A DNA stretch of 64,000 bases from a virus. The stretch is from IMG/VR virus record IMGVR_UViG_3300030012_001865, positions 1 to 64,000 of that record; one strand, written 5' to 3'. Made by a program: the position numbers and the translations under genes. Under the pieces are notes generated by a model. It saw only the letters and a program-made list of their open reading frames with translations. It had not been told where the DNA came from and did not search any database. This document shows, piece after piece, positions 39,401 through 45,049 of this stretch (its first letter is position 1; the number at the start of each line of letters is the position of its first letter).

Positions 39401-41518
39401 CTAAAAACGAGTTTTCTTTTTCTTAAATAAAGACTTATTCCAAAAACTCTGATCATATATAGTAGTAGTTTTGGTTTCTTTCTCTACTTTTATTTTTTTA
39501 ACTTCTTCTAGATGATACATTACCATCATTAGTGCCATGACCCTATCAAAGTTTCCTACATCATTGTAAGATATAAGTTCTTTCAATAATGCTACACTTC
39601 TTATTTTATGCAGGTTTAGCAACCCTTCATTCTCATACGGATCTAGTAACCACATCTTGATTAACTCTTCACCGTACATTTTTAAAGGCTTTGACATGTG
39701 CATACCTTTTTGACGCTGCACTTTACTATGTTGTATTACATCTTTTATAATTTCAGGTTGATCTGAAAGTAAATATGTTTCGTGTTTATGTTCTAAATAC
39801 TGAAACAATCCTTTACGTTCGTTCTCATACAAACACTTTGCGTTGTAGAACTTTAACAATCTTCTTACATTTTCATAATATTGGTTTGCTGTATCAGGTC
39901 TACCTGTGTACTCAGCTACAATACGATTTGTAAGTTTGTTTAATATAAACGTAGATCCTAAAGAAGAGGTGGTAGATTCATCATGATCATAAGGGTCAGT
40001 ACCTGCAAGATACATGCCATAAGGTATTTGGCCATCTCTATCTTCATAAGGCATCTCGTATATAATTACACATCCTGCTATGTTATCATTACCTCTAATT
40101 GGAAACTCATAGATTGGTTGTAGCTTTGCATTAGGCTTCCAGTTTACTTTACCTGAGTCTGCATCTATATACAACTCTCCAATATAATCATGATTGCGTT
40201 CTCTGTTAGATGCCTCTAACTCAGCAAGTCTTGTAAGTAAATCTGCCACTGGAAATAAGTTACCTGTACGTGTAAGAAATACTTCTGATGGTACAAGTGG
40301 TCTGTTTTGTAGCTCTGCATCTAGCGCACTCCTAGCATTTTTACCTTCTTTTAGTTTTTCTCTAAATTTATCTAGGTAATCTCTTGCAGGCTGCTCTTGT
40401 GTATTACCATTATCGTCTTTAAACTGATTCAGCCCTCTGTATGCAGGAACAAAATAAGATATTTTACCTTTGTCTTCCCACTCATCGTCAAAAGAAATCA
40501 TATCATAGACGTCAGGATTGTAAAACATATCTCTTGCATCTACAGTACCACCGCCTTCCATGTCACCACCTGTGCCAAGATACATACAGCTACCAAATTT
40601 GTAAGCCCCGTTTTTCATACATTCTACAGATGCTTCGTGTGACGCCTTTAGATTGTTAAACATACCAATCTCTTCCATAACCATCACGGCAGGACGCGTA
40701 CCATTGGCTGCAAATGGGTTATCTTTAAATGTTCTATGCTTAATTTTAGATTTAGAACCCATAACTTTCCAGGTTCCACCAAGTTTTTTCTTGTATTCTG
40801 CAATAATTTCTTTACCAGAGTACCAACTACCGCCATATTGCTTGGCAAAAGGTGAGGGAAAGAATTTATTTCCAATTTCTATGCCACCAGGCAAGTTATC
40901 TAGCCCAAATTGCGTCTTTTTTAGTATATCACCTGAATATTTAGCGTCACCTGCGCCTACAACTATCTCTGTAGAGGGTGGATTTTTTATAAGCTCAGGA
41001 TCATAAGACTTCATGCCGTCAAATACAAACTCGTGTCCTGCTACGCCACCTGCTACAGAGTATGACTTACCAAATCCACGGCTACCCATCATCATAAAGT
41101 TCTTAGCTTCGTTTTCCCATAAAGGTTTTCCTAAGCTTTTTTTGTGTGTCCTACGCATATATTCTGCAGCAGGTACATAATTATCTTGTCCTATAAACTC
41201 TCTGTTACATGTAAACTCTTTATCATCTTCAAATCCAGAAAATCCGCGTGCTTCTACCCAATTGTAAAAGAATTCCCACTCAAGATCTCGAAGAAATGGT
41301 TTACCAGGTGTTTTAGTTTTAGAATGTTGGGTTTTGTTAAGAAGTATTGTCCAAAAATTGACATAAAAATAAAGGTTACCTGGCATCCATACTCCGCCCA
41401 CCCAGTAACCTTCTATACAACGCTTTTTTTCTTCTCTCCAAAACAGTAAATATTCTTCACTGGCTGGATGAAGTTGAGGTATCTCTTTTAGTAAAAAAGC
41501 ATCTTTGTTAATAATCAT
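39401..41518 (-). CDS. terL: Terminase large subunit
   Basis: Walker A GSRGFGKS, Walker B VMVMEEIG, GTGG, nuclease GTDPY and NFDRVMA. Confidence 0.93.
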   Translation of the reverse strand: MIINKDAFLLKEIPQLHPASEEYLLFWREEKKRCIEGYWVGGVWMPGNLYFYVNFWTILLNKTQHSKTKTPGKPFLRDLEWEFFYNWVEARGFSGFEDDKEFTCNREFIGQDNYVPAAEYMRRTHKKSLGKPLWENEAKNFMMMGSRGFGKSYSVAGGVAGHEFVFDGMKSYDPELIKNPPSTEIVVGAGDAKYSGDILKKTQFGLDNLPGGIEIGNKFFPSPFAKQYGGSWYSGKEIIAEYKKKLGGTWKVMGSKSKIKHRTFKDNPFAANGTRPAVMVMEEIGMFNNLKASHEASVECMKNGAYKFGSCMYLGTGGDMEGGGTVDARDMFYNPDVYDMISFDDEWEDKGKISYFVPAYRGLNQFKDDNGNTQEQPARDYLDKFREKLKEGKNARSALDAELQNRPLVPSEVFLTRTGNLFPVADLLTRLAELEASNRERNHDYIGELYIDADSGKVNWKPNAKLQPIYEFPIRGNDNIAGCVIIYEMPYEDRDGQIPYGMYLAGTDPYDHDESTTSSLGSTFILNKLTNRIVAEYTGRPDTANQYYENVRRLLKFYNAKCLYENERKGLFQYLEHKHETYLLSDQPEIIKDVIQHSKVQRQKGMHMSKPLKMYGEELIKMWLLDPYENEGLLNLHKIRSVALLKELISYNDVGNFDRVMALMMVMYHLEEVKKIKVEKETKTTTIYDQSFWNKSLFKKKKTRF

Positions 41519-42310: not shown

Positions 42311-42538
42311 TTACCATTTTTTAAGTGGGCAGTGTGATTGCATAGATCTTGTTTTAGCAACCAAAGGACACCCACATTGTTTACATCTATTTCTAACATT
42401 GTGTTCGCACTCTCCACATATTTCAACTCTAGCTTTTGCTATTTTCTCTACGTGTGGATTTGGAAACACTACATTCTTCCAACCGTTAAATATTTCAGCA
42501 ACTTTACTCGCTGGACTTCTTTTGTCGTCTTGGGCCAT
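42311..42538 (-). CDS. Small Cys-rich zinc-binding protein
   Basis: R..ICGECEH....CKQCGCPL.AK......CPLKKW. Confidence 0.8.
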   Translation of the reverse strand: MAQDDKRSPASKVAEIFNGWKNVVFPNPHVEKIAKARVEICGECEHNVRNRCKQCGCPLVAKTRSMQSHCPLKKW

Positions 42539-42722
42539 TTTTATAATAATTTAATCTATTTTTCTTTACTGTAAACATCCCTAGATGTTTTAATCTTGTC
42601 GATTTAAAATCTCCCTCTTCTATAGTGTTTTTTAAAAGACTAAATTGGGATTTAACAATAAGTTCTATTTTAAACTCACTTAACTTATGTTTTTTTGCTA
42701 GCTTTTTAATTATTTTGTCCAC
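42504..42722 (-). CDS. HU/IHF-like DNA-binding protein
   Basis: Two helices followed by STRLKHLGMFTVK. Confidence 0.7.
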   Translation of the reverse strand: MDKIIKKLAKKHKLSEFKIELIVKSQFSLLKNTIEEGDFKSTRLKHLGMFTVKKNRLNYYKNGPRRQKKSSE

Positions 42723-43057
42723 GCTAATTTATAAGTTACTTCTATCCCATCTTCTTTTATACCATTCAAAATTGTAGGGTTTATAGATTTATCTACAATC
42801 ATTTTCTTCTTTCTAAGCATTGTAATATGATTATTAAAAGAAGCTTCTGACATACCTATTTGTTTTCTAACTAATTTTCTAACAGGAGTAGAAAACAGCA
42901 TTTTGTTTAGCCCCTCTTTATCTCTGTTAGATTGCCATATAGATAAAAAACTAGAAAGCACTTCTATCTCTTTGTCTTTTAATTTTAACAAAGGATTTAG
43001 TATTTGAAGATATGCCTTCATAGATTTTGGTATGTCTCCTTTTATTGGTATTATCAT
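42710..43057 (-). CDS. Winged-helix DNA-binding protein
   Basis: RKLVRKQIGMSEASFNNHITMLRKKKMI HTH; INP wing. Confidence 0.65.
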   Translation of the reverse strand: MIIPIKGDIPKSMKAYLQILNPLLKLKDKEIEVLSSFLSIWQSNRDKEGLNKMLFSTPVRKLVRKQIGMSEASFNNHITMLRKKKMIVDKSINPTILNGIKEDGIEVTYKLAWTK

Positions 43058-43061
43058 GCGT

Positions 43062-43069
43062 CAAATATA
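43062..43069 (-). promoter_or_regulatory. Possible -7 promoter element TATATTTG
   Basis: TAnnTTTG immediately upstream of 43057; no clear -33 TTG. Confidence 0.4.
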
Positions 43070-43075
43070 ATAAAA

Positions 43076-43819
43076 TTAATTATAATTTAACATGTCGATA
43101 ATTTCTTTTCGATAATCTGCACACTTTATAAGTTTATAAGTGTCATTTTTTTCGTTGAACCAAACTATAAAACAATCTTTGATTCTAAGGTTTGTTTCGT
43201 ACTCAATTATATATCTGTAAAGTGAAAGTTGTAAAGAGTATGTAGAAAATTCACACTCGTCTAGGTGAGATACAGGCCCAAGCATCTTTTTTTGGTACCT
43301 GCTTTTGTAAGTCATTCTTTTGTTCGTTTTCCAGTCAAATATGACAAGCCCATCAAGAGTATTTGAATAGTAGAGCTGGTCAACCATACCGCATATCCCA
43401 AGATCGCGAGAACCAACGCACAACTCAGAGCGAACAGGTATAAGATTTTCTTTCGATTCTTCATAAAATTCTAAAAAGTAGGATTCAATTTTGTCGTACG
43501 CTTCTTTATCTAAATCAAAGTCATACATTACATTAGTGAGCACCTTATTATTTATGTAGTTTTCCGCAAATGCGTGAAACTTACTACCTTTATTACATGC
43601 GCGTAAACTAATCGAATCCCACCTATCTAGAATGTCCTGCAGTTTTACATTTTCTTTTTCTGCAGAACGTGCTGCCCAAAAGTCTCTCTCAAAAGTTTCT
43701 TTGAATTGTCCAATGAATGTGGTTACAGATATAGCTTCCTGCCCCCCGACAGTATACGTGTGTCCCTTCTCCGTAAATACCACATCATTGAACTTGTTTA
43801 ATTCTGTGTATAAAAACAT
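43076..43819 (-). CDS. PD-(D/E)XK nuclease (Cas4/RecB-like exonuclease); track start 43852, ATG 43819 preferred
   Basis: SVTT, GSKFH, SE..V...ICGMVDQL...IFDWKTN, YSLQLSLY. Confidence 0.85.
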   Translation of the reverse strand: MFLYTELNKFNDVVFTEKGHTYTVGGQEAISVTTFIGQFKETFERDFWAARSAEKENVKLQDILDRWDSISLRACNKGSKFHAFAENYINNKVLTNVMYDFDLDKEAYDKIESYFLEFYEESKENLIPVRSELCVGSRDLGICGMVDQLYYSNTLDGLVIFDWKTNKRMTYKSRYQKKMLGPVSHLDECEFSTYSLQLSLYRYIIEYETNLRIKDCFIVWFNEKNDTYKLIKCADYRKEIIDMLNYN

Positions 43820-43823
43820 AATA

Positions 43824-43931
43824 TCAATCTTCTTCTCCTTCTCCTTCTTCATAAACGGTTTCTTCCTCTATAGTAGAATCCGTTATCCAAGATTCCCATA
43901 TTATCTTTGCTTGTTCTTTTGGATCTGTCAT
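43824..43931 (-). CDS. Small acidic protein, 35 aa
   Basis: MTDPKEQAKIIWESWITDSTIEEETVYEEGEGED; the upstream extension in the track overlaps a structured RNA. Confidence 0.5.
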   Translation of the reverse strand: MTDPKEQAKIIWESWITDSTIEEETVYEEGEGEED

Positions 43932-43972
43932 ATCACACTTAATTATTAAAACAAAAGTGGCCAAAAGAAAAC

Positions 43973-44102
43973 CAAACTGAAATGCCACTAACTTTTCAAT
44001 CGGGAGAGTCATTGCTGGTTCAACTCTCAAACATCAAACGAAGATACTTGTCTGTTCCAACAATCGTCTCTGATTGAAGTGCTAGTTCGGTAACTCAGTT
44101 TG
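43973..44102 (-). ncRNA. Candidate structured RNA / leader (~130 nt)
   Basis: Nested helices CAAACTGAG/TTCAGTTTG, ACTAGC/GTTAGT, TTCAATC/GATTGAA, then GAGAGTT/GACTCTC or ATTGTTGG/CCAGCAAT; G-U pairs only work on the minus strand; begins just after TACGTTTG. Confidence 0.6.
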
Positions 44103-44110
44103 CAAACGTA
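44103..44110 (-). promoter_or_regulatory. -7 promoter element TACGTTTG at the head of the minus-strand arm
   Basis: TAnnTTTG preceded by a nearly pure A/T tract (44111-44140). Confidence 0.6.
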
Positions 44111-44253
44111 AAAAAAAATTTTTTATAAAAAAAATATTTTCTGAGAAAATGAAAGAGTGGACCACCTATATCACGGCACCCCTTCTATCTTTTGCGGGCT
44201 AACACCCCCACAGTTGCAAATTATAAATTTATCAATCCTAAAAACAAGTTTTT

Positions 44254-44601
44254 ATGCTTACTAAATTCACAATTTACAAAGTGTCGCTTTCCGAAAAGAA
44301 TAACACCACTATCGTCCTAAAGGCCGACAGTGCCGTATCCTTCGGAAATATGCGCCTACAGTCAGTCGTTATGAATAACTCCTTCTGTTGGCACACTTTC
44401 CGCGGAAAGCTTGACACGGAGTTTACTCAACTCCAACAACAGCAAGCTGTCATTGAAGTTGACAACCCCCAAATTTCCGTCGCTGACGCTGACGGAAAAG
44501 GTGGTGGTAAACTCCTGCTCACACCTAACTCACACCTAAAGGTGTTCGTTAATGGTGTCGAGCAAACTGCTACGGTTGCTCCGCAACCTGCACAGTCGTA
44601 A
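44254..44601 (+). CDS. First early gene, hypothetical
   Basis: ORF track; C-rich codon usage differs from neighbours; has its own terminator. Confidence 0.75.
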   Translation: MLTKFTIYKVSLSEKNNTTIVLKADSAVSFGNMRLQSVVMNNSFCWHTFRGKLDTEFTQLQQQQAVIEVDNPQISVADADGKGGGKLLLTPNSHLKVFVNGVEQTATVAPQPAQS

Positions 44602-44602
44602 T

Positions 44603-44631
44603 AAGAGCCCTAACGGGCTCTTTATTTTTTT
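44603..44631 (+). terminator. Rho-independent terminator
   Basis: AAGAGCCC-TAAC-GGGCTCTT then TATTTTTTT. Confidence 0.85.
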
Positions 44632-44746
44632 GGTTGATCTGTTTACACTTGGTTACGTGATCTTTCGTGCACCAGTTAACATTCCCACTTATTCCCTTAT
44701 AATTTACTTACACACTAATCCACTACATTATAACATATAGCTAATT

Positions 44747-45049
44747 ATGGACATTAACGACGAATTAAAGAAAGCTCAATTAGATAAAGATTGGGATAGT
44801 ATCAAAAGAATATTTGATAAGATAAACGACATCTGCCAACAAGAAGCAGACATGAATGTACTTGAGTTCTTAAAGTATAGAGATAATACTTCAGAGTCTT
44901 GTAGATATTATTCTTTACACTCTAAGACTAAGATAGGACCGTATAAAAATAAACCTAATTGGAATCCAATAACTGTAAAGTATAAAACAAGTATTGAACG
45001 CAGATTTCAAGAAGATGCAATAAATGATATGGACATGGGAGAGCAGTAA
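44747..45049 (+). CDS. Hypothetical protein
   Basis: ORF track; sense strand of the early arm. Confidence 0.65.
   Translation: MDINDELKKAQLDKDWDSIKRIFDKINDICQQEADMNVLEFLKYRDNTSESCRYYSLHSKTKIGPYKNKPNWNPITVKYKTSIERRFQEDAINDMDMGEQ

Follow-up and report, generated by a model that had tools for sequence, protein, structure and literature searches.

A conserved structured RNA between the leftward and rightward arms of a marine crAss-like phage genome, a candidate leader of the late arm

crAss-like phages are among the most abundant phages known, and in outline their early genes are read by a virion polymerase and the rest by the host polymerase. In phage lambda, the late leader begins at PR' and gives a 194-nt '6S' transcript that ends at tR', with read-through in the presence of the Q protein. 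The put RNAs of phage HK022 and the nut sites of lambda, both of them promoter-proximal RNA modules, render RNA polymerase resistant to terminators, and the pyrBI leader of E. coli operates by translation-coupled, UTP-sensitive attenuation; we know of no pyrBI-type mechanism shown in Bacteroidetes phages. In phi14:2, a crAss-like phage, it is host RNA polymerase that transcribes the leftward middle and late genes, using sigma-70-like promoters (bioRxiv 10.1101/2020.03.07.982082).

The element described here belongs to a 94,285-bp marine crAss-like phage genome and is numbered along the window, that is, the whole stretch of 64,000 nt of DNA that was analyzed (positions 1 to 64,000 of IMG/VR record IMGVR_UViG_3300030012_001865); its features are collected in Table 1. 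As at lambda PR'-tR', a host-polymerase promoter is followed by a short leader and a terminator-like end just before the first late-arm gene, so that, with the predicted termination here, a long late arm would need read-through to be expressed. Unlike lambda, the 94-kb genome gave no match to the Q-type families PF06530 and PF03589 (distant or unrelated antiterminators would escape this search), and the lambda leader lacks a conserved array of hairpins with alternative pairing. The element also resembles terminator/antiterminator attenuators (riboswitch platforms, RAT/BglG-SacY leaders) in being promoter-proximal and in having an early hairpin, R2:R3, that shares sequence with a stabler hairpin plus U-run, the transient hairpin being supported by covariation; it differs in that the terminator loop is 22 nt long and invariant, the helices may form a pseudoknot, and no Rfam family was matched. 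A short hairpin and a conserved single strand near the start of a very long operon, conserved across phages with differing downstream sequence, are shared with HK022 put and lambda nut, although there is no similarity in sequence or structure to put or boxA/boxB and a terminator-like element is built into the leader. Finally, like the pyrBI leader, it is ~150 nt long, has U-rich tracts and carries a small ORF running through the terminator ~20 nt before the first gene; unlike in pyrBI, this ORF is lost in 19 of 66 family members.

Table 1. Coordinates of the element and its surroundings, numbered along the window
Feature	Position	Strand	Basis or remark
Whole element, promoter box to U-run	43945..44110	minus	R1 score 195 bits
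A/T tract	44111..44140	minus	Abuts -7 box upstream; conserved as AAAAAATTTTTT-like sequence; A/T inverted repeat
-7 box TACGTTTG	44103..44110	minus	Fits Bacteroidetes sigma-A consensus TAnnTTTG
P0 AGUU[ACCG]AACU	44084..44095	minus	5'-terminal hairpin, 'type A' members
Core module: ACUU, P2, invariant single-stranded UUGGAACAGACAA	44048..44080	minus	Alignment and covariation
P2 CAAUC[AGAGAC]GAUUG	44076-44061	minus	Covariation
Invariant single-stranded UUGGAACAGACAA, family form UUGGAACAGRYAA	44060-44048	minus	Alignment
H3 GAGAGUUG[AACCAGCAA]UGACUCUC	44004..44028	minus	100% paired, two compensatory pairs
R2:R3 CCGAUUGAAA ... UUUCAGUUUGG	43972..44003	minus	99.5% paired
Terminator-like helix AGUGGC (43989-43984)/GCCACU (43961-43956) with lower stem AAAAG/CUUUU	43948..43989	minus	99% paired, invariant
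U-run UUUUGUUUU	43956-43948	minus	Ends terminator-like region
First gene of arm, 35-aa acidic protein MTDPKEQAKIIWESW...	43824..43931	minus	ORF comparison across loci
Leftward-arm genes: PD-(D/E)XK exonuclease, HU/IHF-like, GroES-like, TerL, portal, MCP, 3,304-aa protein		minus	
Large terminase (TerL)	39401-41518	minus	Minus arm
Rightward-arm genes: DNA polymerase, helicases, rIIA		plus	
Element-covering RNA contigs	43874-44092; 43933-44076; 43967-44134		
Fourth-library RNA contig	43618-43818		Exonuclease gene only

With the neighbouring exonuclease as query, 63 viral loci were retrieved. The RNA stretch was 76-100% identical in 33 of them (L001-L036 and L039), and this identity held where the exonuclease protein is only 62-75% identical or where extra genes intervene. 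A pattern search with the 3' part matched 34 viral contigs and 82 marine metagenome contigs with zero false matches. After removal of duplicates, 66 distinct sequences from marine viral and metagenome contigs were aligned (alignment A2). All 66 have a TAnnTTTG box, a leader of ~150 nt, and then a hairpin and U-run, with the first gene of the leftward middle/late arm beginning 14-25 nt further on. Median identity to the window was 94% in the 3' 90 columns of A2 (59 of 90 invariant) and 72% in the 5' 100 columns; roughly 100 nt of the element are nearly invariant, loops included.

BLAST with the region and with its core against 50,697 phage records (cultured phages) gave zero matches, and distant relatives of the exonuclease, searched as loci and as whole records, had no match to R1, the model built from A2, although these are larger, different phages and so little informative. 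The Rfam comparison proposed with the original prediction was run (Rfam 15, with 6S, pRNA, riboswitches and self-cleaving ribozymes among its families; sensitive cmscan of 43000-45000, both strands) and gave no match between 43945 and 44110 at E<=10. ARAGORN detected neither tRNA nor tmRNA genes in the window. The absence of an Rfam match, the conservation and the covariation described below all support the earlier claim of an undescribed structured phage RNA encoded on the minus strand.

When 44110..43945 was folded as minus-strand RNA, RNAfold returned the extended rod of the original prediction at -43.5 kcal/mol (z = -2.2 against shuffles), which is weak evidence because the plus strand folds about equally well (z = -2.5). 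The original prediction had described an RNA of two states, a long closing stem capped by either a three-way junction or a rod, and every pairing that it listed is present in the window sequence. Across the family, however, this two-state model was not kept. The three-way-junction form was 82% paired overall on A2, and the closing stem CAAACTGAG/TTCAGTTTG was 72% paired, with its three central pairs unpaired in more than half of the sequences. Single pairs were kept in 35-97% of sequences in the AGACGA/TCGTTT arm and in 31-97% in the AGAG/CTCT arm of the rod (61% paired over the three pairs outside the gap), and most pairs of these two arms were broken in a quarter to two thirds of the sequences. 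Support for ACTAGC/GTTAGT was mixed (~83% paired). For ATTGTTGG/CCAGCAAT, a 6-bp core, TGTTGG/CCARCA, was kept, but without covariation and with one pair in just 22 of 66 sequences; P2 uses the TG of this core, and the compatible remainder is UUGG/CCAR. By the alignment, only the window's subgroup has the AGACGA/TCGTTT arm, the rod and the long closing stem.

These results bear on two functions that had been suggested, a 6S-like RNA polymerase decoy and a packaging RNA like phi29 pRNA. The size of ~150 nt, the long rod into which the window can fold and UGUUGG/CCAGCA, which could pair between molecules, are all in keeping with them. Both are nevertheless highly improbable, given that the rod and closing stem are not conserved and that the conserved structure is a row of short hairpins; neither reading has an Rfam match, a 6S-like RNA would call for a conserved long rod with closing stem and central bubble, and a pRNA-like one for a phi29-like packaging system dependent on an RNA ring, where the phage has a TerL and portal of crAss type.

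An unbiased scan of A2 for stacked, conserved and covarying columns returned two hairpins, P0 and P2, both missed by the original prediction. P0 (A2 columns 17-20/29-32) was 94.6% paired, with a closing pair that is AU in 16, GU in 22 and GC in 8 sequences. P2 (family form CARUC/GAYUG) was 96.6% paired; its third pair is AU in 22 and GC in 43 of the 66 sequences and broken in one, and its loop varies in length, with an insertion of 25-30 nt in 'type B' members. The predicted TTCAAT/ATTGAA core was itself ~95% paired, but it is with the P2 partner that its variable base covaries perfectly, in the counts and with the one exception just given. H3, which had been predicted as GAGAGTT/GACTCTC, was confirmed throughout the 66 sequences, with compensatory changes at two pairs (9 and 5 sequences) and variants in several lineages (GAGAGU/ACUCUC, GAAGGU/ACCUUC, GAAAGU/ACUUUC). 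Its loop has CCAGCA, complementary to UGUUGG of the core module, and its 3' strand buries an AUG at 44012-44010. R2:R3 has two pairs with double changes and three with changes of the G-U type.

Taken together, the four hairpins (P0, P2, H3, R2:R3) were 98.4% paired, and 9 pairs were changed on both sides, a number reached in 1 of 500 shuffles. The covariation score was 0.181, against 0.106 for shuffled partners and <=0.058 for slid controls. RNAalifold, run independently, returned P2, H3 and the AGUGGC/GCCACU stem. Covariation, which the original prediction had proposed to look for in related genomes, is present, and the conserved fold is, H3 apart, other than the one drawn. In the conserved helices, 199 G-U cells stand against 8 A-C cells, which confirms the strand polarity that had been read from G-U pairs and identifies the structured molecule as the minus-strand RNA. 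In 'type B' members, the 5' domain is closed by a further strong stem, P1 (-7.4 to -17 kcal/mol; p<=0.07), for which several variants are compensatory. P1 was rejected as a family-wide stem, being absent from the window's subgroup. A CUGU/ACAG mini-hairpin was also dropped, as it overlaps P2 and has one-sided changes only.

At the 3' end, the 6-bp AGUGGC/GCCACU pairing and the UUUUNUUUU that follows it are invariant across the family. The predicted terminator of AGTGGC/GCCACT and U-run thus stood as a conserved pairing, but as an invariant one it carries no covariation information. The standard terminator scan did not call the helix, whose 22-nt loop exceeds 8 nt. With its lower stem, the terminator-like helix has a free energy of -10.9 to -11.2 kcal/mol and is the predicted winner at full length; R2:R3 (-7.3 to -7.7 kcal/mol) is, together with H3, the predicted fold before GCCACU is made. 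Of the two strands of the hairpin, R2 comes before AGUGGC and R3 lies inside the loop of the helix. The loop of R2:R3 encloses the AGUGGC strand, and R2:R3 is complete at least 16 nt ahead of the 3' strand of the terminator. The earlier claim that another pairing rivals the terminator was borne out in that the terminator-like 3' end has a competitor; as to its identity, the competitor that covariation supports is R2:R3, not the closing stem. In the folding model, the layout of R2:R3 and helix is the arrangement of a kinetic attenuator, with R2:R3 as candidate antiterminator or as candidate stem 1 of an H-type pseudoknot; modelled in the latter way (loops of 3-4, 1 and 10 nt), the two helices could coexist. 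Features of an attenuator found here are a promoter-proximal leader (box at 44110-44103, first AUG at 43931) and the covarying alternative pairing R2:R3.

The promoter that had been placed directly before the RNA was borne out. The primary sigma factor of Bacteroidetes has TAnnTTTG as its -7 consensus, which was also confirmed in Flavobacterium (PMC7366714). The box of the element, TACGTTTG, matches it; T, A, T, T, T and G are kept in all 66 sequences, and both n positions vary. The A/T tract beyond it is presumed to be an upstream promoter element. With a box centred around -7, the probable start of transcription is a few bases past 44103; in that case, the first bases of the predicted closing stem may be absent from the RNA. 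Just upstream of the promoter A/T tract, several close relatives (e.g., L003:2698-2740) have a perfect hairpin of the GATCCCTCT-A7-AGAGGGATC type, which may be a terminator, possibly bidirectional, that insulates both arms; the window sequence is unrelated there. An RNA contig (X19) with a loose end past window position 44134 was noted alongside this hairpin.

The element sits in a 400-bp gap that separates the leftward and rightward arms, the sole divergence point of the genome, and is present in a single copy. All ORFs >=150 aa to its left are on the minus strand, and those to its right are on the plus strand except for one overlapping 154-aa frame, an arm layout that agrees with the claim that the RNA heads the packaging/late arm. 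An identical divergent layout was found in all 10 of the long related loci mapped, with the upstream genes on the opposite strand and, downstream, the small acidic protein first, 14-25 nt past the U-run. Between the promoter of the element and the first plus-strand gene, the region 44120-44252 is ~84% conserved in distant members (L019, L026-L029) and may be an early-arm promoter or operator site; a 32-nt imperfect inverted repeat lies across the start of the plus-strand gene (44214-44279). Two proteins encoded early in the minus arm parallel the IHF-like middle gene of phi14:2: a 72-aa HU/IHF-like DNA-binding protein (42504-42722; 24.7 bits to Pfam Bac_DNA_binding) and one of 115 aa that weakly matches a winged helix (42710-43057; RP-C N-terminal).

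Weak matches to R1 (25-26 bits) came from contigs with a TerL only 44-50% identical; all lay 2.4-3.9 kb upstream of that gene and on its strand. What they share is the 5' module, that is, ACUU, P2 and UUGGAWCAGRYAA. A pattern of this module matched 72 viral loci, of which ~30 were new and convincing and usually lay just downstream of a TAnnTTTG-like box. Over 60 distinct cores, other phages included, the third pair of P2 was AU in 28, GC in 31, GU in 1 and AC in 0, in a pattern that allowed all combinations. In two near-complete crAss-like genomes, the module is at the GC-skew minimum and heads an arm that encodes GroEL or a tail protein along with TerL, portal and MCP, and it lies upstream of TerL or heads the late arm in at least 3 further crAss-like lineages. 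Neither the motif nor a model match was found in phi14:2. Among bacterial genomes, 8 pattern matches were obtained, of which one was real (L332, a phage-like contig binned in a Bacteroidetes MAG); the seven others were unrelated, coding-like sequence (frames unchecked) and about as many as expected by chance. In crAss-like contigs with a TerL ~47% identical (L286:13128-13400 on the minus strand, L279, L290, L308 and L317), a hairpin looped by UUUUAA comes after the module and, later on, ACUUAC..CAGCAG, complementary to GAYUGUUG..GUAAGU of the module, a long-range pairing that corresponds to UGUUGG:CCAGCA of the window family. That very different Bacteroidetes phages have the 5' module in common suggests a general device and not a quirk of one lineage.

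Because of its position, its promoter, its terminator-like end with a covarying competitor and the recurrence of the module at this point, we favour, tentatively and with somewhat less than even confidence, a cis-acting leader of ~150 nt that would serve as a co-transcriptional attenuation or antitermination gate for the host RNA polymerase at the late arm. Host polymerase would start at the Bacteroidetes-type promoter (-7 box at 44110-44103), and the local hairpins P0, P2, H3 and R2:R3 would form in the nascent RNA. R2:R3, formed first, would hold the 5' strand of the terminator-like helix in its loop; left alone, it would be displaced by AGUGGC/GCCACU and AAAAG/CUUUU by the U-run, and transcription would stop 14-25 nt before the first gene. 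Read-through would be sustained by an earlier-made factor, or by a nut- or put-like action of the conserved 5' module on the polymerase. Termination at the U-run, its opposition by R2:R3 and the deciding part of a factor in trans or of the 5' module are what we infer; the 5' module is likely to be the recognition site of the leader. Counting against this explanation, the most stable fold in the window's own subgroup is the rod, which blocks the terminator without any factor; the uncalled helix with its 22-nt loop, the pseudoknot that may hold both helices, the lack of matches to the two Q-type families and the antisense or co-directional settings of the module in other phages also weigh against it. 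By analogy with put, the 5' module could instead be a previously unknown RNA device of Bacteroidetes phages that, from its place at the front of the 40-kb late arm, by itself makes host polymerase resistant to termination, with no protein dedicated to the task, the family-specific 3' domain being merely the first terminator to pass; we consider this distinctly unlikely.

Polypyrimidine mirror repeats were observed 20-40 nt past the core in several of the other phages (L283:5773-5960, L277, L278, L280, L281, L287, L293, L302, L304), for example with the arms T3CT4CT5CT6 and T6CT5CT4CT3 around GTCC. Relatives differ by symmetric indels in both arms, and scores were 16-26 against <=13 for shuffled sequences. 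A purine partner was searched for on the RNA strand and none was found; because the RNA has no matching purine tract, the DNA strand would serve as partner, in H-DNA or in an RNA-DNA triplex. In the window family, the mirror repeat has arms of 9 nt, UUUUCUUUU and UUUUNUUUU around GGCCAC, which is imperfect in the window (C vs G).

Such tracts would have a place in an origin-associated transcript, in which the promoter, the structured RNA and the pyrimidine tracts mark or prime a replication origin at the arm junction. The cumulative GC-skew minimum at ~44-46 kb coincides with the element, as it does with the module in G015 and in G013, where the minimum is at 50.5 kb and the module at 51.7 kb. 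The element is flanked by an A/T-rich tract, and in other phages the complementary DNA strand is the only exact partner of the mirror repeats. GC skew also follows the direction of transcription, however, and hence does not separate the readings; in G014, moreover, the module is not at a skew extreme. Given also that the mirror arms of the window family are short and imperfect in the window, that no direct repeats or iterons were found in the intergenic region, and that U-rich RNA forms weak hybrids with DNA, an origin function is very unlikely.

Contigs on the stretch are present in four public RNA libraries from four studies, and three of these cover the element. Assembled contigs speak for presence only: they do not show transcript ends, DNA carry-over is possible, and uncovered parts do not indicate absence. 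Stacks of 31-mers at 44110-44140 in one oligo-dT library were A/T-rich low-complexity matches and were disregarded. In two libraries, the sole contig covers the element, as might be expected of a stand-alone sRNA gene of ~150 nt that has its own promoter, ends at the hairpin and U-run and acts in trans, for instance by titrating a host protein or by pairing host or phage mRNAs via UUGGAACAGRYAA, its late-arm site being secondary. The element is indeed bounded by a promoter and a terminator-like end, and ~100 nearly invariant nucleotides, loops included, would fit binding to a conserved partner. In other contigs, the module is antisense to its neighbours or between co-directional genes, or lies in large intergenic gaps (antisense or gap contexts: L285, L306, L275, L287, G014), and the antisense and co-directional contexts fit an independent RNA gene better than a leader. 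We nonetheless regard a stand-alone sRNA as fairly unlikely. The U-run is just 14-25 nt from the first AUG with no second promoter between, and the first genes must therefore be read through the element; two RNA contigs (43874-44092 and 43933-44076) extend past the U-run; and no target or partner was found. A mimic of the 16S rRNA 3' end was rejected, the 3' end of a Flavobacteriaceae 16S gene sharing only the 7 nt UGGAACA with the core.

The preferred cis-acting leader has also to be weighed against translation of the leader itself. The 68-aa ORF that spans the element is a local accident confined to this genome and near relatives: here and in L010, a 2-nt difference joins a small upstream ORF, which opens at the AUG at 44012, in frame to the first gene. 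In other members, the small ORF measures 28-56 aa. Protein-level conservation of the 68-aa ORF had been named in the original prediction as the outcome that would speak against an RNA, and on this point the evidence is mixed. The small ORF is intact in 47 of the 66 sequences, cut to 7 codons by a 1-nt deletion in 16 and frameshifted by indels in 3, and the downstream nucleotides are as conserved in the disrupted copies as in the intact ones (2 variable columns vs 5), which argues that constraint acts on the RNA. Yet in the intact copies, synonymous and non-synonymous codon variants number 7/6 in the reading frame, the other two frames giving 2/11 and 1/12, and the variable columns fall 4/1/6 on codon positions 1/2/3. 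Because of this codon bias, translation of a leader peptide was retained as a rival.

On that account, the ORF from AUG 44012 (MTLPIEKLVAFQFGFLLATF...), which runs across R2, the terminator-like helix and the U-rich tracts, would be a leader peptide, with a trailing ribosome that blocks hairpin formation as in pyrBI, or a small membrane-peptide gene whose hydrophobic product is what matters. An AUG buried in H3 would offer control of initiation, and the ORF, besides spanning the terminator, often overlaps the start of the next gene (ATGA). The compensatory changes in H3, however, alter the peptide (L to F) and keep the pairing; the peptide is variable at its C-terminus and in its length of 7-62 aa; U-rich RNA yields Phe/Leu-rich peptides in any open frame; and no conserved ORF lies beside the module in other lineages. 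With the 19 disrupted copies added, a peptide function is unlikely.

The AUG of the first gene (43931) is 14 nt past the element, and its relatives encode proteins of 35-56 aa, most of which end in C-x6-C-x2-CGS; in the acidic protein of the window, the Cys-rich tail has been lost. A small acidic protein adjoins the module downstream in the window family and upstream in two unrelated contigs (L277, L283), and also in L093 and L077; it is a possible partner of the RNA.

The element would add an uncatalogued RNA family, and its 66 distinct variants and ~30 distant cores suffice for mutational design. A conserved RNA where the host polymerase enters the packaging and structural arm would offer a concrete, testable handle on the early-to-late switch of crAss-like phages.
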